DNA of 32,000 bases. Source: Crocosphaera subtropica ATCC 51142. Lineage in GTDB: Bacteria > Cyanobacteriota > Cyanobacteriia > Cyanobacteriales > Microcystaceae. The notes beneath the pieces were generated by a model. That model had not been told where the DNA came from, did no database searches, and saw only the letters and a program-made list of their open reading frames with translations. Shown here one piece after another: positions 12,061-30,831 of the stretch. The position numbers and the translations under genes were made by a program. Each line of letters begins with the position of its first letter. Within the stretch, counting starts at the first letter, position 1. The stretch lies in contig NC_010539.1 of assembly GCF_000017845.1 (NCBI RefSeq), positions 1-32,000 on the forward strand, read 5' to 3'.

Positions 12061-12223
12061 AAGATGCTGAAATGACCTTTAATTAAAGAAAATTAATTGA
12101 GGCTTATAATTCAATTCCGAATGTGATGGAATGACGAGATTTTGTAGCACAATTTTAACTAAGGAGGGGCTTAAAAAATATTGATTCGATGTTATATAAT
12201 TAATAAAAAGTCCTGAAAAAGTT

Positions 12224-14708: not shown

Positions 14709-15869
14709 TCACGAAAGATAGGGGCGAATTTTTTCAACCGCTACTGTCAGAATGTTAGCCGCTTTCTCAATGTCTTCATCAGTGGTAAATTTGCCAACTC
14801 CAATGCGTAAGGCTCCTTCAATCATCTCATCAGATAACTTTAATGCACGCAATACATGGGAAGGAGTAGCGACTCCCGATGAACAGGCTGCACCCGTAGA
14901 AATGGCTAATTGATGGCGAACTCTGGCGATAATAGCACTATTAGGAATCCCTGGTAGAGAAATATGAAGATTACCTGCAAGGCGAGCGTTTATGTTTCCG
15001 TTAACCTGTAAATCAGGGATTTGCGCTTGTAATAAGGTTTGTAAGCGATCTCGTTGCCTAGCAATCTGCTGTTCATCTTGCTCCATTTCTAATTGACGCA
15101 GACGACAAGCTTCCCCTAATCCCACAATACCAGGGACATTGAGGGTTCCTGAACGCAGTCCTTTTTGATGGCCACCCCCAAAGATAATGGGTTCGAGAGG
15201 ATAGCCTTTTCTCACAACTAATGCGCCAACGCCCTTGGGTCCATAAAGTTTATGGGCAGAAATAGCCAGGTAAGTAATGCCCCAGTCGTTGAAATTGATA
15301 GGAATTTTACCCACAGCTTGGGAGGCATCACAAAGGAAAGGAATATCGTATTGGTGGGCGATCTGACCAATTTTTTCAATGGGGTAAATATTGCCGATCT
15401 CATTGTTGGCTGCCATAACACAGAGAAGGGATAGTCCATCAGCACAGGTATTTTCCAGATTTTCTAAATCTAATCGTCCAAAACCATCAACTTTGAGGTA
15501 AATGAGTTCAGCTTGTCCTTTTTTGGCGAGCATTTGAATGGTGTCTAAAACGGCTTTATGTTCCACGGGAGAAACGGCGATGCGGGGGAGTTTAGGGGAA
15601 TTGATGGCTTGAATATGACCAATAATGGCGAGATTAATGCTTTCCGTTGCACCAGAGGTGAAGATAATGTCTTTGGGGGAAGCCTTAATCAGTTGGGCGA
15701 TTGCTTGACGGGCGTTGTAAACTGCTTTTTCAGCTTCATCGCCGTAGGTGTGGTCAATGCTGCTGGCGTTACCGAAGGCTGTAGTTAAGTAATAAACCAT
15801 TAATTCAGCCACTCTGGGGTCAACGGGGGTGGTTGAATGGTAGTCAAGGTAAATGGGTTGAATTGTCAT
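14709..15869 (-). CDS. Class V aminotransferase-fold cysteine desulfurase (NifS/IscS/DndA-like)
   Basis: 386 aa. 'IYLDYHSTTPVDPRV' at the N-terminus, the PLP-lysine motif 'ISAHKLYGPKGVGAL', 'RSGTLNVPGIVGLGEA', and the catalytic-Cys loop 'STGAACSSG'. The start codon overlaps the stop of the upstream 1841-aa gene (ATGA at 15866-15869). Confidence 0.9.
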   Translation of the reverse strand: MTIQPIYLDYHSTTPVDPRVAELMVYYLTTAFGNASSIDHTYGDEAEKAVYNARQAIAQLIKASPKDIIFTSGATESINLAIIGHIQAINSPKLPRIAVSPVEHKAVLDTIQMLAKKGQAELIYLKVDGFGRLDLENLENTCADGLSLLCVMAANNEIGNIYPIEKIGQIAHQYDIPFLCDASQAVGKIPINFNDWGITYLAISAHKLYGPKGVGALVVRKGYPLEPIIFGGGHQKGLRSGTLNVPGIVGLGEACRLRQLEMEQDEQQIARQRDRLQTLLQAQIPDLQVNGNINARLAGNLHISLPGIPNSAIIARVRHQLAISTGAACSSGVATPSHVLRALKLSDEMIEGALRIGVGKFTTDEDIEKAANILTVAVEKIRPYLS

Positions 15870-18800
15870 AGATTTTGACTTAAATCCTGTTTAATTGCTT
15901 CAGCAACTAAGGAAAATTCTTCATTCGATAAGAATGGCACTTGAGTATATATTAAATCTGATTCCCCTGGTAGTCTTGCGGCTAAATGTCCTTTGCCTAG
16001 AAGACATTCTCCTCCTTTTTGTCCCAAGGAAATTTCGGAAGTTCCTACACTCTCAACTCTTAAGATTAAGCGATTGCCTAAGTTATCTCGAAGCTGCATG
16101 GGAAAGACATTATTATCGGGACGTTGTGCTGCAAAGATTAGATGAATTCCGGCTGCTCTTGCTTTAACTCCTAAGCGTTGTACAGCAGAAGATACAGCAT
16201 TTTTATATTCTTCTACTAACATCCAATCAGCAAATTCATCATGAACTAAAAGAAGAACAGGCAATTGTTTTTCAGCAGAAACTTTTTGATTATAAACCAA
16301 TAAATTATTGACTTTTTGTTCTCTAAATAGTTGATAACGAGAATCCATTTCGCTAACAATTTTTTCAAATACTTCAATGCCTTGATATTGTTCAGTAATG
16401 ATTCCTTCTGTTAAATGGGGTAAGTCTTCTAAGGGGAAATAATCGGTTCCTTGTTTAGCATCAATTAAGTAAATTTTTACCAATTCTGGAGAATTAGTAG
16501 CGCAGACATCTAAGAGAAGATTTCTTAATAAGACTGATTTACCGCTTCCCGTTGCTCCGGCAATTAAAGTATGAGGGGCGTGCTGTTGAAGATGAGCAAA
16601 TTCTTCTCCTAAATTAAGATATAGTAATTCTCCATCAATTTCTTTGACTCCAATGATGAAACTAAGATTAACTCCTGCTTTTAGATTAATTTCTCGTTGC
16701 TTCCATACTTGAGAAAGGGAAATAATTTCTCGTTGGGGACGAGCGATAGAAACGATAATTTCCCCAGGCGCACCTAAGATATTGATGACATTTAACCCAT
16801 GAGTTGTTAATAGACTTGAACGACGAGTTTCAATATCTTTAATATTAAGACGATCTGAGCCTTTAAAACGAATTAAAGCAGCATTAGGGGTTAATCTTTG
16901 TCCTAATACTTTAGCTTGTAAATCATAGCTAATTAGAGCTTTTCGTAGTGTTGAAACGGTTGTTTCTAACCATTTTTTTTCTTGTTGCTCATTGATTTTA
17001 GATTCAGTTTGTTGATTAATCCATGTCGCTAAAGCAGGACTAGCCCAAGTTGTTTGTGTTATATTATTAACTTCTTTCTTTTCCTCATTTTTGTTCTGAT
17101 TTGTATAATTTAATTGATTTAAGTGGTTACTTTGACTATTATAATCAGAAACTCCATTACTATTTTGTTGGGAATTAAAGTCGTTAATAGGATGGTTATC
17201 ATTAGCAGCCTTATTAGGAGTTTTTAACGAATTTATGCTGTGACTAGGATGAATATTTTGAGGAGAAGTAACAAGGGATTGCTTTTGGTTTGAATTAATT
17301 GTTGTTAGATTCTCGTTTTGCAATGTCCTGTTGACTATTGTTTCAGTAGATTCTGTACTTAAACTTTCTATATATGCTATTTTTTCTGATGAAGCTGAAT
17401 CATCAAGAATTGGTAATTCTAAAATAGGATTTACCCAAACCACTCTATCAGCTGGAAATCTTGGTTCTGAAACTGTCCAAGGTTGTTCATTTCCTAATTT
17501 TTCTCGAATAGATGCTAAGGGTTGTTGGTGATGAATAGCTAATACTAATTGACGAACAGTTTCTCGATTAAATATTTCTTGATAACATCTATCTACTTTA
17601 GCAATTGGTATTTGATCGTTACTAACAGAGGTATCGCTAGGTCCAGAGATAAACACATGAGAATACCCTGATAAATCAAGGGGAATCGTGCCGTCTCTAA
17701 CACCTTTTCGCCATTCTTCAATGGAAATTGAATCAGTTGAATTAAATTCAATTCCATCTAATAATAAATCTCCTAAACGAGATAACCATAAATCTCGGTC
17801 AAGTCGCCCTGGACTTACAAATAAAGCATTAGCCATTCGTTCAACGGTATCTCTTAATTGATGTTGAGAACTTTTACGGGCATCATTTAATCCATTTGCT
17901 TCAATATATTTAGCTTCAGAAATAATTATTTTAAGAACAGGTTGCTCATTTTTTATTTGAGGACTGATAGCTAAAATATCAGCAATTCTTCCTTCTTTTT
18001 GTCCTAACCAACTAGCATAGTCATCTAAAAAATACCAACCAACAGGATGTTCTTCTCCTAATTCAGATAATAATAAAGCTTTACTTAATACCACTCCCAT
18101 TAATTCACTGGCATATTTACCACTTTTTGCGGCTCGTAATATAATATCCCCTGAAATGTCTTTAGCTTGCTCAATAAACTGTTCTGCTAACGTTTTGATA
18201 GTGGTTTCATCTAAGTCTAAATTTAAGCTTTCTAAACGGCGTTTGACAAGGACTTGTAACAGGTTCAAAGGAGCATTAGAAGATACTAAAAAATTACGGT
18301 CATCGCTGCGACTTTGTTGATAGCGAATGACATTAACACCTTGATTGATTAATTGTCGTCTTTCGAGTAAATCATCATAATTAACGACCCATTCTCCTAG
18401 ACGATGAACTTCTTTAAATACTGTGCTAGTGTCTTCATCTTGGAAGGAAATCTGTCTTGCAGGAAGAAAATGCTGATTTTTGGCACAATCTAAATCTACC
18501 CGTTTTAAACTACTATAAATGGCATCTAGATAAGTTTGTCCTACAGATGGTTGACTCGGACAGACTAAATAAACCGTCGATTTTAATTCGTCTTTAGCAG
18601 CAGGACGTTTTCTTGAGTAGCGTGTGGGAACGTGCTTGAGAATATCGGGGTTATCGTTAGATAAAGGGGTCGGTTGCCAAACTATTTCTGCTTGTCTGGA
18701 AATAATATCTTGAAGAAAGACAATATCAGCGATTTTTCCGTTAGATGAAGATGATGTGTTCGACATGACGCTGATTCGCAGTCTGGCCATAAAATCGTGA

Positions 18801-21391
18801 GTCCCTTCACTAGCGACAAAAGCATCTGCATCGGTTTGAGAACTTTCTATGAGTTGCTGATACAAATCACTTAATTTGGGGGAATCTCGATGACATAAAA
18901 TGACTTGACAACGAGCTTCATTATAGTTGTCTTGTAATTCACTTAGTTTTGTAATAACTGTTTGGGGAAGTCTAGTGGAGTCACATTGATAAAGAATGAT
19001 ACTCAAATTTGTTTGTTCATGGGGGAGTAATTCGAGGTATCGCTTCATTAAGTCTAGCAGTTTATTGGCTGCCTTTTTGGGGTCTTCATTGGTAGACTGT
19101 TGAGTTATATCTTTTATTGGTTGTTCAAGGAGACTGTAATCATTGACTGTATCAGACAGATAAAGTAATAAAGGTTCATTCCCTTTATAACCTAAACAAA
19201 CTTCGGGATAATAAGGGTGAGTGAGTTCATTTCTTAAATCAGAGAAGAATAAACGGGAATCTCCAAAATTAACGTCTTCTGTTGAAAGAATATGTTTCAG
19301 TAATCCTGAAATTTGGCGGGCTTTAATGCTCAAAGAGGCTAATCTTAAGGGATGCCAAGGCGTAATAATAGCAGCAGGTTTTCCTCGTTTGACTTCCACA
19401 CACCCTAAGCGTAAAATAGGTTCAATTAATTCCACTCGATTAGTATCACCCAGGGCATGATTAAGGAGAGTTTTAAGAAGTTCTTGATAGTCATCGCATT
19501 GGTGGATTAAAACAGGATGGGAAATCCCTTCTTGACTTAACCAACTATTCAGGGCTTTTGTATAAGTTTCTTTAAATTTTCCCCAAGCTTGTTTAATTAT
19601 TTCTGCGGATTCTGAAGATAAGCGATTATCTTGAACTGCCTGTTTAAGAGCCGTAGGAAACAGTTTAGCTAAGTCTTGTTTTCGGTCATATTTACTGACT
19701 AAAGAGCCTCTATCTTGTCGATAAGCAGCCATTAAAGTACCGACATCATCCAGAGAAATTCCTTGAAGACGACCTTTTTTGCTGACTAATTCCCGTGATA
19801 CTTCAGAGATAAGAAAAGGAGAGGGGTTGGAATTAACTAACCGGTTTAAGTCATCATGAAGTTCCATTCCAATACTATTGGGATTTACCTTCCAAATTAA
19901 TTGAATTTTGCTGATTAATTCTTGAGAAAAACAAGAACGAAGTTCTACATAAAATTTGATTTCACAAGCGGCTTTAGCTACAGAAACATTTTTTTTATAT
20001 TTTTTCTTATTTTTCGTTTGTTCATCTTTTAATAATTCATCATATTTAAACAGCCAGTGAGTCTCCCAAGTAATTTCAGGATAGGTTAACTGTTCAATCC
20101 CTCTATACCTTGTACAAAAATATAATCCCATGTCTGCATTGAGTTCTAACCATTTACTTTTACGGGAACTTTTTTGAGTTTTAATAATTAATTGAGTCGG
20201 ATTTTCTTGAGAATCAGCTTGGTCAAAGAGTCGCTCAAAGGCTTGAACTAAACCCACTAAAAAGTCAGTGCATTCGATGGGTTGACCGTAGACAAATTTA
20301 TCCCATTTGGTTTTGAGAGTACGGTCATTTTCTAATTCAGACCGATGGTTATCATAAAATTCTTTGTCTTCTTCGTTAGCTTCTTTGGCTTTTCTTTTCT
20401 TTAATGTTTCTAGATAGTCTAATTCAGATTCGGTTAAACTATCAGGGTATTCATCTTCATAAAATTGTTGGGTTAAACTATATAAGTCGGTTTTTTTTGT
20501 TTTTAATCCACTAAAAATAGCGTGAATATTATCTATTTCCCATTCAAATTTAGTTAAAGCTTTCCCTTGTTCATTCCATTCCGGCGGACTTTTAATGAAG
20601 GCTTGAATAATAGAATGGGCTTGCTCAGGAATGTCTTCTTTAACCTTTTCAAAGGTCGATTGTAACTCACTTTCTTCAATGGGTTTACGGGTAGGGGTTT
20701 GTTTGAGTAACAGACAAGCCCGTTTAGAAACCGCCTGTTGATACTTTTGTTGCCACTTTTGGGCGTGTCCCCAAGTTTTTTGGGGTATGGCTTCAAAATA
20801 CCCCGAATCACGGGGTAAACGTAAGGCAGGTAAAGCCCATCCCAAGGCATTAATGATAGGAACACTTTCTGAGGCGATGCGCTCACGAGTATCCATGACA
20901 TAGTTCGCAAATTGCTCTAAACTGCATTCGCTGGCTGCAAGTAGTCCTTTTAACGCTTTGTTCCAGTATTTTAATTGTTCATCAGGTAAATCTAAGCCCT
21001 CACTGGCCACGTCTACCCAAATTTCAATTTGTTCTTTTAAGAGTCCTGCACCCAAGGCAGAAATATCTTTTAAAGATTGTCCTTGGTCATCGTTAGTATT
21101 AGCTAATAGCAGACAAGGGCGGTCACAGGGAGCATGGCGTAGGTGAACGGTCTTTTCATCGGTTAAAATAGCTTCAGGAAGGTCATATCCTGCCACTAGA
21201 GTGCGAGGAATTTGGATTTTAATGTGGGGAGATAAGTCAGGGGTAGCGAGAATAGACTGACAAATGTTCGTGACTTGTTCTCCTGTTAAACGGTCTAAGA
21301 TAAACCGAGCAACTCCGTCTGAATCCTCTGTATTTAGGGATTCTCTGAGAAATTTTGTCGCTACTTGGCCAATTAAATCAATAGAATCCAT
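15866..21391 (-). CDS. Giant (1841 aa) DptH/DndH-like protein: large N-terminal region, PD-(D/E)xK-like nuclease motif, N/Q/S-rich linker, C-terminal FtsK/SpoIIIE-type translocase motor
   Basis: The FtsK motor is seen directly. 'LTPNAALIRFKGSDRLNIKDIE...GAPGEIIVSIARPQREIISL' is the beta-domain. 'LIAGATGSGKSVLLRNLLLDV' is Walker A (K1618, 16538-16540). 'LLLVHDEFADWM' is Walker B. 'AAGIHLIFAAQRPDNNVFPMQLRDNLGNRLILRV' is also present. The nuclease-like motif is 'ADILAIS...IIISEAKY' (D1138, E1159, K1161; 17909-17980). The DptH call rests on size, position after two coupled genes, and domain content. It was not confirmed by any search. Confidence 0.55.
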   Translation of the reverse strand: MDSIDLIGQVATKFLRESLNTEDSDGVARFILDRLTGEQVTNICQSILATPDLSPHIKIQIPRTLVAGYDLPEAILTDEKTVHLRHAPCDRPCLLLANTNDDQGQSLKDISALGAGLLKEQIEIWVDVASEGLDLPDEQLKYWNKALKGLLAASECSLEQFANYVMDTRERIASESVPIINALGWALPALRLPRDSGYFEAIPQKTWGHAQKWQQKYQQAVSKRACLLLKQTPTRKPIEESELQSTFEKVKEDIPEQAHSIIQAFIKSPPEWNEQGKALTKFEWEIDNIHAIFSGLKTKKTDLYSLTQQFYEDEYPDSLTESELDYLETLKKRKAKEANEEDKEFYDNHRSELENDRTLKTKWDKFVYGQPIECTDFLVGLVQAFERLFDQADSQENPTQLIIKTQKSSRKSKWLELNADMGLYFCTRYRGIEQLTYPEITWETHWLFKYDELLKDEQTKNKKKYKKNVSVAKAACEIKFYVELRSCFSQELISKIQLIWKVNPNSIGMELHDDLNRLVNSNPSPFLISEVSRELVSKKGRLQGISLDDVGTLMAAYRQDRGSLVSKYDRKQDLAKLFPTALKQAVQDNRLSSESAEIIKQAWGKFKETYTKALNSWLSQEGISHPVLIHQCDDYQELLKTLLNHALGDTNRVELIEPILRLGCVEVKRGKPAAIITPWHPLRLASLSIKARQISGLLKHILSTEDVNFGDSRLFFSDLRNELTHPYYPEVCLGYKGNEPLLLYLSDTVNDYSLLEQPIKDITQQSTNEDPKKAANKLLDLMKRYLELLPHEQTNLSIILYQCDSTRLPQTVITKLSELQDNYNEARCQVILCHRDSPKLSDLYQQLIESSQTDADAFVASEGTHDFMARLRISVMSNTSSSSNGKIADIVFLQDIISRQAEIVWQPTPLSNDNPDILKHVPTRYSRKRPAAKDELKSTVYLVCPSQPSVGQTYLDAIYSSLKRVDLDCAKNQHFLPARQISFQDEDTSTVFKEVHRLGEWVVNYDDLLERRQLINQGVNVIRYQQSRSDDRNFLVSSNAPLNLLQVLVKRRLESLNLDLDETTIKTLAEQFIEQAKDISGDIILRAAKSGKYASELMGVVLSKALLLSELGEEHPVGWYFLDDYASWLGQKEGRIADILAISPQIKNEQPVLKIIISEAKYIEANGLNDARKSSQHQLRDTVERMANALFVSPGRLDRDLWLSRLGDLLLDGIEFNSTDSISIEEWRKGVRDGTIPLDLSGYSHVFISGPSDTSVSNDQIPIAKVDRCYQEIFNRETVRQLVLAIHHQQPLASIREKLGNEQPWTVSEPRFPADRVVWVNPILELPILDDSASSEKIAYIESLSTESTETIVNRTLQNENLTTINSNQKQSLVTSPQNIHPSHSINSLKTPNKAANDNHPINDFNSQQNSNGVSDYNSQSNHLNQLNYTNQNKNEEKKEVNNITQTTWASPALATWINQQTESKINEQQEKKWLETTVSTLRKALISYDLQAKVLGQRLTPNAALIRFKGSDRLNIKDIETRRSSLLTTHGLNVINILGAPGEIIVSIARPQREIISLSQVWKQREINLKAGVNLSFIIGVKEIDGELLYLNLGEEFAHLQQHAPHTLIAGATGSGKSVLLRNLLLDVCATNSPELVKIYLIDAKQGTDYFPLEDLPHLTEGIITEQYQGIEVFEKIVSEMDSRYQLFREQKVNNLLVYNQKVSAEKQLPVLLLVHDEFADWMLVEEYKNAVSSAVQRLGVKARAAGIHLIFAAQRPDNNVFPMQLRDNLGNRLILRVESVGTSEISLGQKGGECLLGKGHLAARLPGESDLIYTQVPFLSNEEFSLVAEAIKQDLSQNL

Positions 21392-23077
21392 TTAAGTTTT
21401 CTCCACAGTGTAAGGATTAAGGACATAAGCACAAGCATCGGAAAGGCGTTTGAGTAACCCCAAGGATGCGAGGCGTTGTTCGAGACGTTCTGCATTATCA
21501 GAAAAAGCTTCAAGGTCTGCTTCTTTGCGCTGAATGATGTCAATGGCTTGTTTTTCACCAATTATGAAGCCATATTTTTGATAGAGTGTGTCTAAAAATT
21601 CTTGAAATTCCATCCGTTTTGGGACACAACAAAGTACCAAGGTTTTTAATAGGGAGTCGGTGGGTGCATATCGGGTGCGACGACTTCCCCTGCTCGAAGC
21701 GAGTCCAATTTCTTTTGTCCACTTACTATGAAATTGACCAACGTGCTGTTTATGTCTAGTAATTGCTGAGAGACGAATTTCTTCTAATAGTTCATCGGGA
21801 GAATTACATTTGATTTCATCCTTTTTATAGTAAATTTCTTCTTTGATAATTTCTAAGGCATCTTCTATGGAGTTGGCAGAGTTAAGACAGGTTTGCCATT
21901 CTGGAAGTTGAGACAGTCTTTTTATATAGTGTTCAACCGCTCGTTTACTCAGGTTATTATTGTTTAAAAAGGCATCGGAAGCTAGGTCACGAATAATCGT
22001 TTTTTTGGGAGCAATTATTTCTAAAATTAATTGAGGTTTATCTTGACTATTCAAGGTGGTTGTTGAGTTCAATGAATCTTCATTGGTATTAGCTATAGTT
22101 TCTGACTTAAATAATAGATTTTGTTGACTATTTAAGAGACTTTCTGAGGAGAATCTAGGGTCATCTTCATTATTTAAGACGGCCTTAGCTCGTTTGAGTA
22201 GGTAAATGACTAAATGGACTCCTGTAATAGTAACTAAATGGGGTAAAGAATCATAGTCAGGAAGATGGCAATTAAATAGATTTATCCAATCATTAGCTAA
22301 GTTTTCAAATTCATCAAGATGTTCATAGGGAAGATAGGGAGGACTGCTATCTTTTCCTCTTGGTTTTGTATCAGAATGATCATTAGGTTGAAGGGTAGCA
22401 ACTAATTTATTCCATTTACTCGATTGTTTATGATCTATTATTCCTAATTTTTTTAGATGGGTTAAAATGTCTAATTTTAAAGAACTACGACTAATCATGA
22501 GATAAAGTAATTCTCCATTTCTGGCAAAAAAACGACGGTCATTGCTATAACTATTCTTACTAATTCTTAAATCCTCATAAAGACAATTAACCCCATAGGG
22601 AAAGACAAATTTAGAAGTCCAACGTTTATTACTATCACCTTCAATGGCATTAGATTGAAGAAATCTTACCACTTCTAGAAAGTCCCGAAACCTTATAAAG
22701 CGTTCTTGTAAATAACTAAAGTTAGGGGTGTTAATACCTCCACAATTATCATTCATTAAAGTTAACCATTGTTGCCAACGTTCTTCTTCTGTTGGATATT
22801 CTGCATAAACTGCTTCTAGAAAAGGATTATTAAACAGGATATTTCGTAAATAAAGACGACTATAAGAGGGATATTCTAATTGATGATTTTCAGGTTCAAT
22901 AAAAGCTTGCTCTCTTTCTAATTGTGTTTGAACAATGCCTAAAAATTCTAGAAGGGTTAACCAAGGGGTTTGTTCATCATAAAGACGATGACCCCAAATA
23001 GCTTCATCAACCCACATTTCAGTTTCTCTATGGGTTTTATTATGAGATGTAGGTTTAGGAAGACGTTTTATTATCAT
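21392..23077 (-). CDS. Hypothetical protein, DptG/DndG-like by position (561 aa)
   Basis: Start overlaps the stop of the upstream gene (ATGA at 23074-23077). Its TAA stop directly abuts the ATG of the 1841-aa gene (TAAATG, 21389-21394). I recognised no enzymatic motif. There is an internal S/N/T-rich low-complexity stretch. Assignment is by synteny only. Confidence 0.35.
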   Translation of the reverse strand: MIIKRLPKPTSHNKTHRETEMWVDEAIWGHRLYDEQTPWLTLLEFLGIVQTQLEREQAFIEPENHQLEYPSYSRLYLRNILFNNPFLEAVYAEYPTEEERWQQWLTLMNDNCGGINTPNFSYLQERFIRFRDFLEVVRFLQSNAIEGDSNKRWTSKFVFPYGVNCLYEDLRISKNSYSNDRRFFARNGELLYLMISRSSLKLDILTHLKKLGIIDHKQSSKWNKLVATLQPNDHSDTKPRGKDSSPPYLPYEHLDEFENLANDWINLFNCHLPDYDSLPHLVTITGVHLVIYLLKRAKAVLNNEDDPRFSSESLLNSQQNLLFKSETIANTNEDSLNSTTTLNSQDKPQLILEIIAPKKTIIRDLASDAFLNNNNLSKRAVEHYIKRLSQLPEWQTCLNSANSIEDALEIIKEEIYYKKDEIKCNSPDELLEEIRLSAITRHKQHVGQFHSKWTKEIGLASSRGSRRTRYAPTDSLLKTLVLCCVPKRMEFQEFLDTLYQKYGFIIGEKQAIDIIQRKEADLEAFSDNAERLEQRLASLGLLKRLSDACAYVLNPYTVEKT

Positions 23078-24981
23078 AATTGAATCTCCAAGGTTCTTTC
23101 ATTAGCTATTCCATCGGCATTAAGTTCTAGTAAACGAATAATCATCTCTGAAGCTTCAGTTTCGTCGGCTTCTTCTTCTTTTTGTCTTCTAATATTAAGT
23201 TGTCCTAACAGTCGAGTTTTAAAAGCTAACATATCCTCATAACATTCTTGAGAAAAGTTACTGGGTAATGCTCCTTCTGCAACTCTGTTTAGGTATTCAT
23301 AGCGAGTTAAATTTAATCGGAGTTTTATAGGGTCAACTTCAGGGTGGGAAGATAGAGAAATAATAAAATCGGGAGTATTATGGTCAGTATTTAATTCAAC
23401 TGTGACACTTTCACCTCGTTTTTTAATAACAGAAATATATTCTTCAAAGACTCGACTAATCTTGGCTTGAGAATAACTACCAGATGTTGCTAAAACTAAT
23501 TGATCTTGATTATTTATCAATAATCCGGTAAAGATACGATTGATTCCTTTAACTATTTTAAAAATGAGATATTTAGGAATGGTTTGATTTTGTTTTAATG
23601 GTCTACAGACTTGTTCTAAATAGTCTCCTGCATACTGAAAAGCTGTTAATTCCCATAGTTTTAACTCTGCTACTCTATGCTGAGGAATAGTAAAGAATAA
23701 TCGCTGTCTTTGTGTGTGAAGTATATTTAAGAATTCTTCTTTACTGTCTTGAGAATCATTGCTTTCTAAATAGCTTTTTTGAGCAATACGAAATTGTTGA
23801 TGTGCGCCATAAAAAGTATCTGTTAAGACTAAGTTTTCATAATCTTGTTTTAAGTCCGGGTCATCTTCTCCAAAAATAAGAATATTATCAATATAGTTAC
23901 TGCTTTCTGTACCAATTCCAAAATATCTTAAAGCAACAAAGACATCAGTTTTATTTCGTTTTCTGCTAGAAAGATTTTCTCCAAATAGATTACTATAAGG
24001 ACTAGCTAAATAACCTGTTTTTTGAGTTGTAATTTTAGGAATTTGGTTACAGTTAAGTAATTTATCTTTGACATCAGGATGTCCTAAGATAATATTAGAA
24101 ATAAGGAGAAGTAATTGACGAATAGGAAGATGGGTTCCTTTATGACGAGATAATTCGAGAAGGTCAATAATTCGCTGTCTCATTAACTGTTGGTCATTTT
24201 TTCCATCGAGTCTGGTTTTGTTTTCCCAAATGGGACAGCGTTGCTGACTATCTGTAGGAGTTTGATAGGGACATTGACTACATTCTTCCCAACCAGGATG
24301 ATTTAAAACTGCATCAAGAATGCGAGAAAAGATTTCTTCGTTATTTAAGCGACTTAGGTTATAAAGAAGTAGGTTAAACTCAGGATTTTCTCTTTTTTCT
24401 TCTACCAATAAGGTTTCAATTAATTGACGTGCTTTTTCTATTTGAGGAGTGTTTTCTGCAACGTTCCATGCTTCGATGAGTTGTCCATCATTAGCAGCAA
24501 TTAAGTAAACTTTATCGGTATGATAGGGGTTGATGATCCCTTCTGCTATTTGAGGTAATAGTTGGGTTTTTTCTTCGTCTTGAATGGCACTGAGGTCTTT
24601 TATAATAATTAGAGTTTTTTGTAAGAGTGGTAGTTTATATATTTCTTGATTGGTTTCCCACTCTTCTTTTGACCCTCCTAATTTTTCCCAAATTTCTCGA
24701 CAGCAGAATGTTTTTCCATCTCCTGCTGTTCCGGTGAGAATCACCGATTTAGGGAAGTCAGATTGAAAGTTATCGATTAATTCTTGTAGGTAAGGAGTTT
24801 CAAAACAGATGGGTTGAATTTTGTTTTTCTTTAATGCTCGTTGAATTGCCTCATCATACATATTATCATTACGAGGAATTGGCCCATATTGACGGAGAAA
24901 GGTAATCCATTTTGATTTTTTGAAAGTAGAATTATAATTCATAATTAGAGTAATTAAACTTAAATATATATAACCAATCAC
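23074..24981 (-). CDS. P-loop NTPase, DptF/DndF-like by position (635 aa, or 622 aa from the ATG at 24942)
   Basis: Walker A 'LTGTAGDGKTF' (G84-T91) with a hydrophobic-Asp stretch 'TLIIIKDLS' about 45 aa later. The remaining ~450 aa have no recognisable motif. First gene of the tightly coupled trio. Confidence 0.4.
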   Translation of the reverse strand: MIGYIYLSLITLIMNYNSTFKKSKWITFLRQYGPIPRNDNMYDEAIQRALKKNKIQPICFETPYLQELIDNFQSDFPKSVILTGTAGDGKTFCCREIWEKLGGSKEEWETNQEIYKLPLLQKTLIIIKDLSAIQDEEKTQLLPQIAEGIINPYHTDKVYLIAANDGQLIEAWNVAENTPQIEKARQLIETLLVEEKRENPEFNLLLYNLSRLNNEEIFSRILDAVLNHPGWEECSQCPYQTPTDSQQRCPIWENKTRLDGKNDQQLMRQRIIDLLELSRHKGTHLPIRQLLLLISNIILGHPDVKDKLLNCNQIPKITTQKTGYLASPYSNLFGENLSSRKRNKTDVFVALRYFGIGTESSNYIDNILIFGEDDPDLKQDYENLVLTDTFYGAHQQFRIAQKSYLESNDSQDSKEEFLNILHTQRQRLFFTIPQHRVAELKLWELTAFQYAGDYLEQVCRPLKQNQTIPKYLIFKIVKGINRIFTGLLINNQDQLVLATSGSYSQAKISRVFEEYISVIKKRGESVTVELNTDHNTPDFIISLSSHPEVDPIKLRLNLTRYEYLNRVAEGALPSNFSQECYEDMLAFKTRLLGQLNIRRQKEEEADETEASEMIIRLLELNADGIANERTLEIQL

Positions 24982-25003
24982 AATTTATGATTTAACACTT
25001 TTA

Positions 25004-26728
25004 TTAAGATGTATCTTTCCTTTGTGACCAAATTAGTAAAGCTAGTTCTTCTAATTCAGCTATTTTTAATGAATCAGTTACACAAAATAAATCAATATTT
25101 CCACCAACTTCTTGCTGAAGTTTAGATTTTAGAGTCTTTAAGACTGATTTTCCATAACGATATCTCTCACAATCTTGGTCATACATTTGATAACAGTTTG
25201 AAGCTATTTGTCCATTATTGATTCTTCCGTTACCTTTTTGACGAGATTGTTGTAATTCTATGTCTGTCCGACTATTTATAAACTTTTCTTTCGATTTTTC
25301 AGATTTTTCAGCAGTGGAATTACTGATAAGCTCTTGTATCCTATCTGTTGTTAATTGTGGATATAAAGATTGGATATGTCCAAGATTAATAAAATGAGAT
25401 TCTGCATCTGTTCCAGTTGTTAAAAAGCACAATATATTTGCTCGTTCAATTTTTTCTCTAAAATCGTTTGCTTCATCATCCGTTAAATAATCTCTATCTC
25501 TATGTAATAATATTTTAGTTTGAGAACTATGTTTTCGGATAAAAGCAGCTAAAACTAATGCTGTTTCAACTTTAGTACATCCTTTATATGACCAAATATC
25601 AACTTCATCCATTCTAAACCCTGATGCTTCTAGCAATGTTTCAATAGGTTTAGTGTCTTCATCTTCAGTTAATAAAACACATTTAATATTTTCAGTATTT
25701 AATAATAATTCATCTTTATCTAAAGCTCCAATATCTAGTAAAAGTTGAACAGTATCAAAATCTTTTTCATTTATAATTGTTCCATTCTTTAACCAATATA
25801 TTTTTGTCTTTTCTCGTAACGCATCAAGGAGATGTCTTGAATGAGTAGTTACTATAATTTGTAAATCGCGTTCTTCAGTCAATTTGATTAGCATTTTAGC
25901 TAATTTTCGTTGGTTATTTGGATGTAAATGCGAATCGGGTTCATCTAAAAGTAATATTTGAGGTTTATAAATATTAATATAAGATATAATTTGTATCGCT
26001 TGTAAAACCCCTGTACCAGCTAAATCTATTGGTAAACTATTTTCATCATTGGCTTGAATTTGACAATTAATATAATCATCACGTTCTGGATTAAACTCAA
26101 CAATAACTTTTAAGTCAGGAAATAAATAATTAAAGTCTGATATAAATTGTTTCCATTGTTCTGATTCATTGTGAAGAAGGTAAAGAACATTTCGGAATAC
26201 TTTATTGGCATCTCCTCTAGCAGCTGCCTTTCTAACAATCCCTGGAGTTTTACATTCTTCTACGTCAGGAATACCAGCTAGTCCAGGGACATAAATACTA
26301 TATGGTGTTTCTATGATTTGTAGTCTTTCTCCTAATTCTTTTCCTTCTACTGTAATCGATAAATTTCTATTTCTCCCTTTTCTCACTGTAACAAGAACAT
26401 TTTGTTTTTCTTGATTTTCTTCAAAAGAAATGATAATTGCTTGATCTTTATTTTCAACCAGTTTACCTCCATAGGCCAACGCATAAACATCTCTAAGAGG
26501 CGCATAGATTAGCTGCTGAGGGGATAATGAAGTTGATAATTTTTCATCCTTCCAATTTACATTACTCTGAAGACTAGCTGTTTGACCAACAGATACAGCA
26601 AATTGTATAGCTTGTAGAATGCTACTTTTTCCAGAATTATTTGAACCTACCAAAATATTAACTCTATCAAGGTCTAAAGTTAAATTTTCTAAATTCTTGA
26701 ATCTTTGTATAGTTATTTTGCCAAGCAT
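25004..26728 (-). CDS. OLD-family-like ABC ATPase + Toprim/DUF4435-like nuclease fusion (GajA-like or fused PARIS AriA-AriB-like architecture)
   Basis: The N-terminal half carries Walker A 'VGSNNSGKSS', a signature-like 'LAGTGVLQAIQ', Walker B/D-loop 'ILLLDEPDSHLHP', and H-loop 'IVTTHS'. The C-terminal half carries 'CVLLTEDEDTKP' (Toprim Glu), 'ILLHRDRDYL' (DxD), and 'GTDAESHF'. Confidence 0.7.
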   Translation of the reverse strand: MLGKITIQRFKNLENLTLDLDRVNILVGSNNSGKSSILQAIQFAVSVGQTASLQSNVNWKDEKLSTSLSPQQLIYAPLRDVYALAYGGKLVENKDQAIIISFEENQEKQNVLVTVRKGRNRNLSITVEGKELGERLQIIETPYSIYVPGLAGIPDVEECKTPGIVRKAAARGDANKVFRNVLYLLHNESEQWKQFISDFNYLFPDLKVIVEFNPERDDYINCQIQANDENSLPIDLAGTGVLQAIQIISYINIYKPQILLLDEPDSHLHPNNQRKLAKMLIKLTEERDLQIIVTTHSRHLLDALREKTKIYWLKNGTIINEKDFDTVQLLLDIGALDKDELLLNTENIKCVLLTEDEDTKPIETLLEASGFRMDEVDIWSYKGCTKVETALVLAAFIRKHSSQTKILLHRDRDYLTDDEANDFREKIERANILCFLTTGTDAESHFINLGHIQSLYPQLTTDRIQELISNSTAEKSEKSKEKFINSRTDIELQQSRQKGNGRINNGQIASNCYQMYDQDCERYRYGKSVLKTLKSKLQQEVGGNIDLFCVTDSLKIAELEELALLIWSQRKDTS

Positions 26729-26758
26729 AAAATTTCATGAGATCAATAATAACAGTGA

Positions 26759-27559
26759 TTACAAATGACACACTAAACAAGGCAAATCATCATCCTCCTC
26801 ATCTAAAACCACCTCTAACGCTTCGGATAAAGGTCGATTAGGGGCTGCTTTTTTCTCACGGGCGATCGCCTTCTCATGATTAGCGATAATCTCCTCTTTG
26901 CGTTCCAAAAGTTCTAGTAACGTTTCTCCTTCCGTCCAGGTGTAAGTTCTGCCATCCCTGTGATTAGATTCATATTCCACCGCCTTCGCAAACAAATCAG
27001 GATGTTCTTGGGCTAACATCACCCATTCATATTTGCGTTGGAAGAAACAAAAGAAACAGCCCGAACGACTTCGCCAGCGATAATAATCTGGCAAACCAAT
27101 CCCACTATCCTCTAATAAACGGATAATATCGGCTTTTACTAATCCTCGTTCCTTAAACGGAAAAACAGGCTTAATATTGGGCTTAGTAGAGATGTAACCC
27201 TCTCGATTTTCATCCGCACGAATGCCAATATAGCTAATAGCCTCATCCTCACCCACAAACTCCTCTAACGGCTTAATCTTCATTTTTACCGTACACCAGC
27301 GCATTTTTGGAGAAGGTAATAGACCATCGTGCATCGTTAACCAGTGGTCAAACCCTCGGTTTTCACTGAGATAATGGATTGTGATACCTAGACGGGCTTT
27401 AATGCGGTCAAGATACTCATAGGTTTCAGGGAGTTCTTTGTGAGTGTCACAGAAGAAATACTCCATATCTGGGATTTCCTTGTGCAGTAGTACCGCCAAA
27501 GCTGTGCTATCCTTGCCTCCTGAGAGTCCCAGTATGTGCCTTATTTTCTTTTGTGCCAT
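26759..27559 (-). CDS. Short (266 aa) PAPS reductase / PP-loop ATP-pyrophosphatase family protein (DndC/SspD-related catalytic core)
   Basis: PP-loop 'LGLSGGKDSTALAVLL' (S13-S18) and 'MRWCTVKMKIKPLEEF' (a PF01507-type block). Cys clusters 'SGCFFCFFQ' and the C-terminal 'PCLVCHL'. Contains one HIP1 site (26862-26869). Confidence 0.85.
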   Translation of the reverse strand: MAQKKIRHILGLSGGKDSTALAVLLHKEIPDMEYFFCDTHKELPETYEYLDRIKARLGITIHYLSENRGFDHWLTMHDGLLPSPKMRWCTVKMKIKPLEEFVGEDEAISYIGIRADENREGYISTKPNIKPVFPFKERGLVKADIIRLLEDSGIGLPDYYRWRSRSGCFFCFFQRKYEWVMLAQEHPDLFAKAVEYESNHRDGRTYTWTEGETLLELLERKEEIIANHEKAIAREKKAAPNRPLSEALEVVLDEEDDDLPCLVCHL

Positions 27560-27672: not shown

Positions 27673-28257
27673 TCAAGAGGGGATAGAAAGAACATTACAA
27701 ATTTCTCGTCCTTGGATAGTTGTTGTTTTGAGGGGAGAAAACCCATTTTCTTCCCACTGATATGGAGTAATGTCAATTACGTTAGAACCAACTAGGAAAT
27801 TTCCACAATTTATTTTTCCTGTATTAGCTCGATTAGATGTATAGAGAACAAAGCCACTTCCATAAGGTCTTATTTCAATAAAGTTCATCGTTGAAAAAAT
27901 GGGTTTAATTTTTCTTGATTGACTTTCAAAAATGTAGGCATGGGTTGAAATCCCACTTCCACCTCCACTTGACAGTAAAACTACTAAAGCATCTTCTTTG
28001 GAATCATCATTAAAGTCTCTGTACTGAACTTTATCTAATGAAACATAACCCCAATCATCATCTTGATACTGACCTTGTTTGAGGGTTATATTTCCAGAAG
28101 GTCCCATTCCTCCTTCTCTTATTTGGTAAGTAAAATTATTAAAATCTATTTGCCTAATTATTTCTTCGGCATAGCTAGGTGGTACAAGTAAAAATCCTAG
28201 GGAAAAAGAGGTTATTAATCCAGTTAACAATTGATTGTTTTTCATAACTTTGCCCAT
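27673..28257 (-). CDS. Secreted hypothetical protein (signal peptide)
   Basis: N-terminal 'LLTGLITSFSLGFLLVPPSYA/EE' is signal-peptide-like. The mature part begins 'IDFNNFTY' and contains 'FNDDSKEDALVVLLSSGGGSG'. Confidence 0.55.
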   Translation of the reverse strand: MGKVMKNNQLLTGLITSFSLGFLLVPPSYAEEIIRQIDFNNFTYQIREGGMGPSGNITLKQGQYQDDDWGYVSLDKVQYRDFNDDSKEDALVVLLSSGGGSGISTHAYIFESQSRKIKPIFSTMNFIEIRPYGSGFVLYTSNRANTGKINCGNFLVGSNVIDITPYQWEENGFSPLKTTTIQGREICNVLSIPS

Positions 28258-28319
28258 TAATAATTAAGTTTGACTTTGCAACGAAATGCTATTAAGACTA
28301 AAAGTAAAAAGCTTAGCCC

Positions 28320-28889
28320 TTATTGATTTAATAATGTGATTCTACTCAAGAAATTAGTTAAGTCTTGTAGTTCAACTTCACAGTCACATCTAATTGAGAC
28401 TTCTAGTAGTTTTGATTTATCTGGAATGGTTCCTAAAAAAGTCATACTATAACCACTCTCAGAAACTATAATATAGCCAGGATTTCTACTATTTTTATAA
28501 AAAAAATATGTTTTCAAGTCACCATGATAAATATCTAAAATTAGTTCCTTTAAACCTTCTGACTGGTTATTTTCAATTAATCTAATACTTTCGGAATAAC
28601 GACCTGTATGATATTGGGCTATACCACCATTGGCTATACATTCAAGAAATTGGTAATCATTAGGATGAAGAATTTCTACAGAACGGTCTTGTTTCAGCAT
28701 AACTCTATAGTTTTCAGGAATATCAACACTTATTCCAAAACCTTCAAGGTTTAGTCTTCTATAAGTAGGAGAAGGAGATTCATAATTGCCATCAATTTCA
28801 CATAGCACCTCAGCAAAACTTGGTTGAGATAAAAAAGAGACGAATAAGCTAATAGAAGAAAATAAGGTAATAATTGATAAAAATTTCAT
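28320..28889 (-). CDS. Secreted hypothetical protein, paralog of the 28942-29562 gene
   Basis: Signal peptide 'MKFLSIITLFSSISLFVSFLSQPSFA/EV'. Shares the block 'LNLEGFGISVDIPENYRVM' with 'IVLEDFGIKISNIPTNYRAM' in the next gene. Confidence 0.55.
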   Translation of the reverse strand: MKFLSIITLFSSISLFVSFLSQPSFAEVLCEIDGNYESPSPTYRRLNLEGFGISVDIPENYRVMLKQDRSVEILHPNDYQFLECIANGGIAQYHTGRYSESIRLIENNQSEGLKELILDIYHGDLKTYFFYKNSRNPGYIIVSESGYSMTFLGTIPDKSKLLEVSIRCDCEVELQDLTNFLSRITLLNQ

Positions 28890-28941
28890 AATAGCCTTAC
28901 ATTGATGATTTTAAAAATAGGAACACTAAAAAATTAGAAGG

Positions 28942-29562
28942 TTATAGAGTTTTAGAGAGTAAAGTTACATTAGGTAACATACATTTCAAGACTTGTAACC
29001 CTGGCTCTCCTGGATATATATGTATTCCTAATACTTGCTTTCCTGGTATATCTATATAGTAAGCAGCACCATCACCTAGTTCAATTAAGTATCCAGATCG
29101 TAAGTTTCCCAATGAATCTAATATTTTATGCTCTTTCATATAGCCAAGAGAATCTCTATTTTGATGAGCATGATTTAAAATTTCTTCTAAAGATGTTTGT
29201 TCAAAGAATATATAGATGTTAGGATAATCTCCTAGATAATCTGCACGGGAATCATTCGGTTTCTGAAGAACCTCGAATACATCTTGTCTGATAATATCAA
29301 CTCTCTTTAATCCATTGAGACCACTCATTGCTCTATAGTTGGTTGGAATATTGCTAATTTTAATGCCAAAATCTTCCAAAACGATAGTACGGTTAGTTGT
29401 AGCTGCTGGTGTCCCATAAAAGTTGGACAAATTACATTTATCTTTTCCATTTATCTTGACACTGTTAGGAAGAAATTGAGCAGAGGTTTGCTCAAAATAA
29501 CCTAATGTAGTAGACAAAAAGGTTAATATAAACACTAGAAAATACAAATTGCACCGTTTCAT
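28942..29562 (-). CDS. Secreted hypothetical protein, paralog of the 28320-28889 gene
   Basis: Signal peptide 'MKRCNLYFLVFILTFLSTTLGYFEQTSA/QF'. Shares a conserved block and a similar overall layout with the neighbouring gene. Confidence 0.55.
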   Translation of the reverse strand: MKRCNLYFLVFILTFLSTTLGYFEQTSAQFLPNSVKINGKDKCNLSNFYGTPAATTNRTIVLEDFGIKISNIPTNYRAMSGLNGLKRVDIIRQDVFEVLQKPNDSRADYLGDYPNIYIFFEQTSLEEILNHAHQNRDSLGYMKEHKILDSLGNLRSGYLIELGDGAAYYIDIPGKQVLGIHIYPGEPGLQVLKCMLPNVTLLSKTL

Positions 29563-29584
29563 AACTTGTCCTTACCCTCATTAA

Positions 29585-30112
29585 TTAGTCTGGAAAATAA
29601 TTTTTAAGTGGATCGTAGTCAAAAGGAAGCTTATTCCAGTTCCAATAAAAGTCCCAATCACCTGGAAATTGTTCATCTTTGTAATGAATTCGACTAAAAC
29701 CATCTCGACGCATCGTCCAATCAGACCAAGTTGGCCCAGAAAACGAAACGAGGGCTACTTGTGGACAAAAGGGTGCAAGACGTTGAGCTATTTGTAGCAT
29801 CACCCTTTCTCTTTCTCCAGAACCAAACTCTCCTGAAAGGGCAGAAAAACCAATTGAATAGTTACCCTTATAATCTCTAGCGACATCTACAGAGGTTTTC
29901 TCGAAATGTTCACGAGTCGGTTGATATCGTCTTATTTGATTAAAGACTTCAGATGTAATGGTACGACATTCATCGGAAAGCACTTCTATTGATAAATTTC
30001 TTTGAGCTAAAGAAGGAGACACATCAATGATAATTGGCAGGGTTATCAAAGCGGTACTTAGAAACTGTTTGAATGACAAAAATAGAAATTTATGTCTAAA
30101 GAAATTCTTCAT
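29585..30112 (-). CDS. Secreted or membrane-anchored hypothetical protein
   Basis: Hydrophobic N-terminus 'FLSTALITLPIIIDVSPSLA/QRN'. Trp/Asp-rich C-terminus (WSDWTMRRDGF...PGDWDFYWNWNKLPFDYDP). Confidence 0.5.
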   Translation of the reverse strand: MKNFFRHKFLFLSFKQFLSTALITLPIIIDVSPSLAQRNLSIEVLSDECRTITSEVFNQIRRYQPTREHFEKTSVDVARDYKGNYSIGFSALSGEFGSGERERVMLQIAQRLAPFCPQVALVSFSGPTWSDWTMRRDGFSRIHYKDEQFPGDWDFYWNWNKLPFDYDPLKNYFPD

Positions 30113-30123
30113 TTTTTAAATTC

Positions 30124-30831
30124 TTAAAGGTGGGTATCTATAACGATTTTGTGTCCGTAATCAACTCTAACTGTTAATTTCACTTGGGTTTTTGAATTCC
30201 AAAAATCAATATAACAACCAGACCATCCATTTCCACAAGTTAAACAGGGGGCATTACTCTCACAGATGTTTTGATTGCTTGCTGAAACAGCTGTTTCCTC
30301 TTGCGTGACTATCCTAAAACCATTGGTATATAAAAGTTGTTTAGCTTGTGATAAATTCATTCCTGCCTTCAGGTAATTAGGATGTAAGTTATTGCAAAGA
30401 TACCTATTAAGAAGCGTGCTATGGTAAGGATTCAAAACATAATAATCAAACTGGTCAGGTGGTACATTTAGCTCATTAACAAATTCTCCTTCGTAATAAG
30501 TTTTAAAAGCCTTTGCCTGAATAACTTTAACTTGTTTATTAGTAAAATTTTTGGACTGACAACTATCTATTCTTTTTCCTTTGACAGCTAAAGATTGTTG
30601 TTTTTTGTCTGAATCATAGAAAAAGTAAGCAAACTCCGAAGTAACAGAATTGTCAGTTTTTTGAAGACTATTTTTGTTGATTTCTATCCTCACATTAGGA
30701 TGACCAACACTAATCCATTGAGACCCTAAATAACTATTCGTTTGAGCCGATAGCTCCATAGCACTAGAGCTAGACAGGACAGCAGCAATTGTTAACGACA
30801 GAAAAGAGCGCATTGGGTAATTTCTCTCCAT
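30124..30831 (-). CDS. Secreted Cys-containing hypothetical protein
   Basis: Signal-like 'MRSFLSLTIAAVLSSSSAMELSA/QTN' (the start is probably at Met7). Contains a C-terminal Cys cluster 'ICESNAPCLTCGNGWSGC'. Lies 11 nt upstream of the next gene. Confidence 0.5.
   Translation of the reverse strand: MERNYPMRSFLSLTIAAVLSSSSAMELSAQTNSYLGSQWISVGHPNVRIEINKNSLQKTDNSVTSEFAYFFYDSDKKQQSLAVKGKRIDSCQSKNFTNKQVKVIQAKAFKTYYEGEFVNELNVPPDQFDYYVLNPYHSTLLNRYLCNNLHPNYLKAGMNLSQAKQLLYTNGFRIVTQEETAVSASNQNICESNAPCLTCGNGWSGCYIDFWNSKTQVKLTVRVDYGHKIVIDTHL

Follow-up and report, generated by a model that had tools for sequence, protein, structure and literature searches.

The first 32,000 nucleotides of contig NC_010539.1, a plasmid of Crocosphaera subtropica (Cyanothece) ATCC 51142 (this whole stretch is called the window hereafter), carry between positions 14,709 and 27,559 six co-directional minus-strand open reading frames (ORFs) of 386, 1841, 561, 635, 574 and 266 aa. 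A first-pass annotation had taken this cluster for a sulfur-based modification-restriction locus, with a central trio as its restriction module, a desulfurase and a PP-loop enzyme belonging to the same system, and an OLD-like gene as its unusual member, and this outline holds. Our data indicate that the locus is very probably a canonical SspABCD-SspFGH phosphorothioate (PT) modification-restriction system, borne on the plasmid and broken up by strain-specific insertions. It is not the compact, non-canonical sulfur system that had been proposed, an appearance that arose because the window edge and the inserted genes hid the partner genes. The core outcome is corrective, in that the locus would be an ordinary member of the published SspABCD-SspFGH family; its odd part is the OLD-like nuclease-type gene after sspD, possibly an undescribed Ssp-associated nuclease.

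Gene identities within and beyond the window

The proteins of the window were named by PADLOC, Pfam and NCBIfam profile scans, and across the window and the contigs that extend it PADLOC matched the SspA, SspB, SspC, SspD, SspF, SspG and SspH families. The whole order is sspB, a DUF433/PIN pair with two oppositely oriented small ORFs, a DUF3368 fragment, sspC, five small ORFs, sspD, the OLD-like gene, sspF, sspG, sspH and sspA. The OLD-like protein is 100% identical to the plasmid protein P0001, and plasmid-type genes (ParA, a DUF3987 protein, an integrase and PRiA4_ORF3) occupy the left part of the window. The features of the locus inside the window are the following:

30935..32000, minus strand: 3' part of sspC, an ORC/Cdc6-type or BrxC-like ATPase (PADLOC SspC PDLC02781, 2e-122, profile positions 808-1104 of 1104)
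27673..30831, minus strand: five small ORFs (235, 175, 206, 189 and 194 aa) with signal-peptide-like N-termini and no Pfam or PADLOC match
26759..27559, minus strand: sspD, PP-loop ATP pyrophosphatase of PAPS-reductase fold, 266 aa (PADLOC SspD 6e-115)
25004..26728, minus strand: OLD-like ABC-ATPase with a C-terminal Toprim-like domain, 574 aa (Pfam AAA_15, AAA_21, SMC_N)
23074..24981, minus strand: sspF, Walker-A NTPase, 635 aa (PADLOC SspF 5e-233, 773 bits)
21392..23077, minus strand: sspG, 561 aa (PADLOC SspG 3e-187, 621 bits), its start overlapping the sspF stop (ATGA)
15866..21391, minus strand: sspH, 1841 aa (PADLOC SspH 2344 bits; Pfam FtsK_SpoIIIE 2.6e-37)
14709..15869, minus strand: sspA, NifS/IscS-type class-V cysteine desulfurase, 386 aa (PADLOC DndA 1e-141, SspA 4e-141)

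The sizes, gaps and junctions of the six ORFs are as first described, with 30 nt between sspD and the OLD-like gene, 22 nt between the latter and sspF, and the junctions ATGA (23074-23077), TAAATG (21389-21394) and ATGA (15866-15869) further on. The genes sspF, sspG and sspH form one three-gene unit whose junctions overlap or abut, and sspA overlaps the sspH stop by the last ATGA. Judging from the alignments, sspF probably starts at Met14 (ATG at 24942) and not at the GTG at 24981, because the PADLOC match begins at residue 26, the orthologue of the unicellular cyanobacterium SU3 (L006) comprises 622 aa from an ATG start codon, and 24944 is where DNA homology with that locus begins; the gap between the OLD-like gene and sspF would therefore be 61 nt.

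The P-loop NTPase of 635 aa (Walker A GTAGDGKT at residue 84 of SspF) and the FtsK motor of the 1841-aa protein (FtsK/SpoIIIE domain at residues 1600-1758 of SspH, a C-terminal translocase ATPase with Walker A GATGSGKS at 1612) were confirmed, as were the 386-aa desulfurase (Pfam Aminotran_5; PLP-lysine motif SAHK, residues 204-207) and the 266-aa PP-loop PAPS-reductase core (Pfam PAPS_reduct; PP-loop SGGKDS, residues 13-18). The motifs of SspD, SspA, SspF, SspH and the OLD-like protein are all intact. The likeness of the trio to DptFGH is one of analogy only, since the SspF, SspG and SspH models scored 773, 621 and 2344 bits, and no DndF/G/H model (TIGR03236-03238 type) matched at E<=0.01 in NCBIfam and PADLOC scans that did return the neighbouring TIGR03235 (DndA) and TIGR03183 (DndC). 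Moreover, the PP-loop enzyme, described as half the size of DndC or SspD, is not short for an SspD: residues 7-265 align to positions 1-276 of the 277-position PADLOC model, an end-to-end match, and its relatives measure 266-270 aa.

That dndB, dndD and dndE are missing was correctly seen, no DndB, DndD or DndE match having been obtained in the window or the extended contigs, but the partner functions are present as sspB and sspC. The sspC fragment of the window comprises the C-terminal ~350 residues of a gene that runs off the window end and encodes 1250 aa in full. Five assemblies (L001-L005), found via a neighbouring small protein, share stretches of up to 6.4 kb with the window at 100% identity, and those that run on into sspC match it over 3.4-5.6 kb; L002 extends past the window end and carries the complete 1250-aa SspC (PADLOC 1524 bits, profile positions 1-1104) and, further on, a 302-aa SspB (PADLOC SspB 1e-123; Pfam DUF4007) ~6.3 kb beyond the window end. 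A complete sspB-sspC-sspD modification set is found on the replicon, partly inside the window.

These genes bear directly on the proposal that the OLD-like protein is an ATPase-nickase replacing DndD, or SspB plus SspC, in a compact sulfur pathway with the desulfurase, a mini PAPS reductase and a Dpt-like trio. The OLD-like gene is indeed packed between sspD and sspF (30 and 22 nt), its product joins an ATPase to a putative nicking domain, and it is conserved beside sspD within a clade. However, intact sspB and sspC lie on the same plasmid, SspD is as long as is usual in its family, the trio fits the SspFGH and not the Dpt models, and closely related Ssp loci keep sspB, sspC, sspD and sspA with no OLD-like gene; furthermore, the loci of the OLD clade that have enough flank all carry sspC (L117), together with sspB in L026, L031, L033 and L037. 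Such a pathway is, in our view, extremely improbable: a compact, undescribed installation of the mark with the OLD-like protein supplying ATPase and nicking activities is contradicted by the presence of sspB and sspC, and the OLD-like protein is not a substitute for SspB, SspC or DndD.

By analogy with the Vibrio and E. coli systems, SspA would take sulfur from cysteine, and SspB (DUF4007 nickase, DNA recognition), SspC (ATPase) and SspD (PP-loop) would install a single-strand PT on host DNA. In the Ssp systems studied PT is written at 5'-CpsCA-3' (PMC8092258), which may also be the motif here. SspF, SspG and SspH, FtsK-like translocase included, would then damage DNA that lacks the mark. SspFGH together with IscS-SspBCD restricts phage, and SspFGH damages PT-free host DNA and is toxic without the mark (PMC8092258); the intact sspFGH therefore argues that modification is maintained despite the insertions.

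The strain-specific insertions comprise the five small ORFs for presumably secreted proteins, a toxin-antitoxin pair and the OLD-like gene. Between sspB and sspC lie a DUF433/PIN (DUF5615) toxin-antitoxin pair (L002:1149-1859) and two opposite-strand ORFs of 189 and 194 aa (L002:1939-3154) that are 39% identical paralogues of each other, and a 69-aa DUF3368 fragment, the C-terminal part of PADLOC PDC-S70, directly precedes sspC (L002:3480-3689) and is also present in a sister metagenome-assembled genome (MAG; L007). All of the small ORFs, these two and the five in the window, have signal-peptide-like hydrophobic N-termini and no family matches, and secreted-protein genes inside a DNA-modification operon are odd. 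The five at 27673-30831 are not part of the Ssp system and represent strain-specific cargo, because they are without family matches, are missing from 20/20 related loci and form a block that the DNA homology skips. An inversion or shufflon was rejected as an origin, the 189- and 194-aa ORFs upstream of sspC being unrelated in sequence to those of 189 and 194 aa in the window, and a repeat search around the insertions gave no direct or inverted repeats of note flanking them.

Three strain-specific insertion blocks, with opposite-facing genes between sspB and sspC, could also mean that the locus is a decaying, non-functional remnant in which sspB, sspC and sspD have been uncoupled and neither modification nor restriction is left. 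A terminator-like hairpin just after sspC (30870-30853) points the same way, although such sites are no commoner than in shuffled sequences, and the loss of sspD and of the sspF 5' end in the sister MAG shows that decay occurs in this lineage. Yet all eight ssp ORFs are full length with catalytic motifs intact, the overlapping sspF-G-H-A junctions are kept, and an intact SspFGH, for which toxicity in the absence of PT has been reported, would hardly be retained on a plasmid that lacks working modification. We consequently regard decay of the whole system as unlikely.

Related Ssp loci and the region between sspD and sspA

An SspF scan of reference genomes gave 20 loci, which were tabulated by tblastn. 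Neither the OLD-like gene nor the small ORFs occur in any of these SspF-related genome loci (0/20), and the exact six-gene arrangement does not recur among them. The genes sspD and sspA are indeed conserved beside the trio in L009, L010, L021, L022 and L023, but within the canonical sspB-C-D-F-G-H-A layout, which is uninterrupted in Pannus brasiliensis (L009) and in a Blastocatellia MAG (L021); L022 and L023 have the same gene content, except that sspA lies upstream or was not found. SspD is 71-87% identical to its counterparts in L009, L010 and L021, and sspA is likewise terminal, after sspH, in L006, L009 and L021. Among plasmids, the only PLSDB match was a 78%-identical sspD on pCHL69-2 of Cyanobacterium sp. 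HL-69, where there is no OLD gene.

In two of the cyanobacterial relatives the place of the OLD-like gene is held by SspE, which lies between sspD and sspF in Microcoleus (L010) and immediately upstream of sspF in strain SU3 (L006); both proteins carry GmrSD_N and GmrSD_C and score 1069-1071 bits with PADLOC SspE. At the DNA level L006 matches the window with ~95% identity between 14683, which lies directly beyond the sspA stop, and 24944, where sspF probably starts, and the homology breaks off exactly at that point; the OLD-like gene therefore fills the slot held by SspE in the closest relative. SspE and SspFGH thus stand together (B-C-D-E-F-G-H-A) in related cyanobacterial loci (L006:237-2447; L010:7666-9924), SspE being also found at L031:5518-7788, and this dual arrangement has been reported from 36 genomes (Wang et al., PMC8092258).

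In comparison with the sister Crocosphaera MAG (L007; 92-94% DNA identity), the toxin-antitoxin pair and the two small ORFs between sspB and sspC form an indel. In this MAG, which illustrates how the same system can decay, sspD is gone and sspF lacks its first ~94 codons. The lost part is replaced at L007:6932-10001 by genes for an RHH protein, a 390-aa HNH-domain protein and three other ORFs.

Across the relatives, the region from sspD to sspA behaves as an exchangeable effector slot, which is occupied by SspE, SspFGH, a PbeA-like helicase/HATPase/DUF2779 set, a brxCZL-like set or the OLD-like gene.

The OLD-like protein and its linkage to sspD

The N-terminal half of the OLD-like protein is an ABC ATPase of the OLD/AriA/GajA/MAD3 type, with Walker A GSNNSGKS and Walker B ILLLDE, and its best PADLOC matches are NsnB, AriA, AbiLi, mad3, Old and GajA, with no Ssp model among them. 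The AlphaFold model of the full protein (pLDDT 88.9) has as its top Foldseek match the OLD protein of Thermus scotoductus, 6p74 (2.7e-13 over 542 columns, TM-score 0.34-0.37, identity ~14%), which likewise ranks first among PDB entries in the sequence search (5.7e-15). The C-terminal 240 residues are modelled as a four-strand alpha/beta core with a helical tail (pLDDT 92), and the residues E355, D411xD413, D441/E443 and K527 are invariant in a 40-sequence alignment. Residues 330-574 gave no Pfam, PADLOC or PDB-sequence match, nor a match to AriB. In this context, of the earlier description as an ABC-ATPase plus Toprim protein, the ATPase part stands (Walker A/B, Pfam), and the Toprim assignment of the C-terminus is plausible, the best OLD match of a domain-only Foldseek search (6nk8_B) being weak at E=0.067.

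The genomic contexts of the closest OLD-like homologues were looked up, and metagenome loci outside the clade of the window protein were counted only if they had at least 900 nt of upstream flank. In a neighbour-joining tree (no bootstrap), all ssp-linked OLD-like proteins fall in one clade and all unlinked ones outside it. Of the 11 clade members whose context could be read, ten belong to ssp loci, nine of them directly after sspD and one after sspE, and the spacing from sspD to the OLD-like gene is 28-40 nt in all nine direct pairs. The loci, with the identity of their OLD-like protein to that of the window, are as follows:

P0003 / L026 and P0008 / L032 (63% and 60%): sspB-C-Fic-D-OLD, facing a DUF4007-BrxC-PglZ-BrxL cluster
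P0004 / L031 (62%): sspB-C-D-SspE-OLD-helicase-HATPase_c_3-x-sspA
P0010 / L033, L034 (61%): sspB-C-D-OLD-helicase-HATPase_c_3-DUF2779-x-sspA
P0020 / L117 and P0029 / L037 (57% and 56%): sspC-D-OLD-DUF4007-x-BrxC-PglZ-BrxL-sspA
P0005 / L035, P0013 / L120 and P0002 / L123 (63%, 61% and 66%): SspD C-terminus immediately upstream, on short contigs

The exception, P0006 / L119, has the OLD-like gene preceded by one for a 444-aa DndB-family protein (L119:590-1924; PADLOC DndB 7e-20), which is still a PT-system-associated family. Contigs of the ssp-linked clade have a GC content of 30-44%. Outside the clade, none of 46 metagenome loci is ssp-linked, and P0007 (prophage-like), P0012 (after smpB), P0017 (archaeal) and L036 are also unlinked; among the unlinked loci, only L105 gives a match of SspE/GmrSD type, and a weak one. 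A plasmid protein search returned only out-of-clade OLD-like genes, at <=50% identity.

Three different modules stand behind the sspD-OLD pair, namely SspFGH, an SF2-helicase/HATPase_c_3/DUF2779 set, and DUF4007-BrxC-PglZ-BrxL. The second recurs between the OLD-like gene and sspA (L033:7636-13645; L031:9598-13974) and is seen downstream of the OLD-like gene in L035, L120 and L121. It comprises a PbeA-like SF2 helicase (5e-27), a HATPase_c_3 protein with a MzaB-like N-terminus, a DUF2779 protein (Cas4-like nuclease) and a ~310-324-aa protein with a weak ZacB match, and could represent one more Ssp-linked effector set that has not been described. The third, with DUF4007, a ~148-aa protein, a BrxC-like protein of 1316-1430 aa, PglZ and BrxL, lies by the OLD-like gene in or beside the sspB...sspA frame (L117:3349-12685; L037:11859-21068; L026:11238-20314), in agreement with the proximity of sspBCD and brxCZL described in cyanobacteria (Yuan et al., 2026).

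Regarding function, the OLD-like protein would be an additional nuclease-type effector in the variable slot between sspD and sspA, encoded on the same strand and nicking or cleaving DNA in an ATP-dependent manner, and its clade would have been passed on in its place immediately after sspD, with the modules that follow being swapped. We lean slightly towards its acting as an autonomous, co-transcribed second layer of defence, like class 1 OLD nucleases. Relatives at 57-61% identity stand alone, in prophage-like, post-smpB and archaeal contexts, and the proteins of the ssp-linked clade (567-584 aa) have no domain beyond those of these standalone relatives, both of which favour the autonomous reading.

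A different role, which we consider possible but clearly less favoured, is that the clade constitutes an integral PT-coupled partner of a (probably cyanobacterial) Ssp lineage, acting either as a third PT-dependent restriction effector beside SspE and SspFGH or as a guard nuclease that responds to phage inhibition of the Ssp or BREX-like machinery. The sharp division of the tree speaks for such coupling, as does the contrast between 10/11 clade members in ssp loci and 0/46 metagenome loci outside the clade; moreover, the sspD-OLD pair persists as the downstream module changes, always within the sspB...sspA frame. There are also precedents, since MADS has an OLD-type ATPase on its restriction side and PARIS senses anti-restriction proteins (Ocr), and 83.9% of sspBCD clusters were found without known effectors, for which more counterparts have been proposed (Wang et al., PMC8092258). 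On the other hand, the linked loci represent one narrow SspD lineage (~78-90% identity) with OLD-less loci interspersed (L008, L009, L010 and the HL-69 plasmid), so that one ancestral insertion followed by co-inheritance and losses would account for much of what is seen. The pairwise distances of SspD and OLD-like proteins correlate weakly (r=0.50 for 7 locus pairs) with partial topological agreement, which decides nothing; nor is there an extra sensor domain in comparison with the standalone relatives at 57-61% identity. Finally, the OLD-like gene is never seen as the sole candidate effector, and its absence from the 20 SspFGH-bearing genome loci implies that SspFGH does not need it.

Several points weigh against the preferred reading of a canonical, insertion-broken Ssp system with an autonomous OLD-like nuclease. 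The strict sspD-OLD adjacency over three modules exceeds what a random passenger would be expected to show and favours a functional tie, and in MADS, a modification-dependent system with SspG- and SspH-like proteins, the OLD-type ATPase MAD3 works on the side of restriction. Furthermore, sspB, sspC and sspD are split by inserted genes, two of them opposite-facing between sspB and sspC, and coordinated expression is therefore only presumed. No PT chemistry or phage data for strain 51142 were found in the open-access literature. Promoter and terminator scans gave sites no commoner than in shuffled sequence, and are therefore uninformative on operon structure.

In the same literature we found no report that connects OLD nucleases with Ssp or Dnd, and a 2024 review lists eight OLD-containing systems, none of them PT-based. 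As far as we found, the tie between an OLD clade and sspD is thus new in the open-access literature, whereas SspABCD-SspFGH itself was already known. The sspD-OLD pair provides a concrete, testable candidate for one of the restriction counterparts still to be described for the ~84% of sspBCD clusters without a known effector, and if the link proves functional it would be, on the basis of the same literature, the first tie of OLD-family nucleases to the sensing of a DNA-backbone modification.

Known systems and neighbouring genes

The closest described counterpart is SspABCD-SspFGH of Vibrio anguillarum FF-93 (Wang et al., 2021, mBio, PMC8092258), with the same seven families, a Walker A motif in SspF, an FtsK-like SspH and a packed sspFGH next to sspBCD. 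In contrast to FF-93, which uses iscS, sspA here ends the operon and overlaps sspH; inserted ORFs set the modification genes apart, sspD and sspF flank an OLD-like gene, and the host replicon is a cyanobacterial plasmid. SspABCD-SspE (Xiong et al., 2020, as related in PMC8092258) has, in that account, the same modification module, and SspE holds the sspD-sspF slot in L006 and L010. To judge from the same account, SspE and the OLD-like protein both pair an NTPase with a nicking-type nuclease domain, putative in the latter. However, no GmrSD_N/GmrSD_C protein is encoded in the window, and the OLD-like protein has an unrelated fold and no known PT-sensing domain.

DndABCDE-DndFGH (DptFGH) follows the same logic of a PT mark and a three-gene module with a P-loop protein and a translocase-like giant, toxic without the mark. 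Nevertheless, no similarity in sequence between the trio here and the Dnd/Dpt F, G and H models could be detected, and the trio is not accompanied by DndB, DndD or DndE, in line with the report that SspFGH and DndFGH share Walker A and translocase-like features without significant sequence identity (PMC8092258). Characterised Ssp systems produce single-strand PT, and Dnd systems double-strand PT (PMC8092258).

Like class 1 OLD proteins (phage P2 Old; Thermus scotoductus OLD, 6p74), the OLD-like protein has an N-terminal ABC ATPase, then an alpha/beta domain in which acidic residues are conserved, and a helical tail, and its close relatives also occur as single genes. It differs in that its own clade is embedded in ssp operons and in that its C-terminal domain has no significant match to a Toprim model or structure. 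MADS of Pseudomonas aeruginosa (bioRxiv 10.1101/2023.03.30.534895) offers a wider parallel, the OLD-like protein matching MAD3 (1e-17), the SspG C-terminus MAD7 (1e-13, NCBIfam) and the SspH FtsK domain mad8 (1.5e-19), all of these scores being far below the family cut-offs. These sequence matches suggest that SspFGH and MAD6-8 are distantly related restriction modules. The MADS mark is methylation, MAD3 lacks the C-terminal domain (model length 374-427), and MAD3 is needed for lethality upon loss of the methylase (bioRxiv 10.1101/2023.03.30.534895).

OLD-family ABC ATPases also serve as defence effectors in Gabija (GajA/GajB) and PARIS, although GajA models match only the ATPase ends, in the N-terminal half, and no UvrD-type GajB is encoded in the window; the helicase right after the OLD-like gene in some clade loci recalls GajB, but is SF2/PbeA-like and not UvrD-like. 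Similarly, AriA of PARIS (AriA/AriB) matches the ATPase part only, and the window has a single fused 574-aa protein with no separate AriB (DUF4435/Toprim).

Elsewhere in the window, the plus strand at 11341-13714 encodes a T5orf172/GIY-YIG protein (239 aa) followed by a RecD/PIF1-like SF1 helicase (496 aa; PADLOC PDC-M16A 1e-42), beside a tyrosine integrase (10332-11204), and this pair is a possible separate two-gene defence candidate. The plasmid backbone also carries unusual metabolic cargo near its ParA and replication genes, comprising a CBS-CP12 fusion (6096-6728, minus strand) and a protein of the adenosine-specific-kinase family (7061-7543, plus strand).

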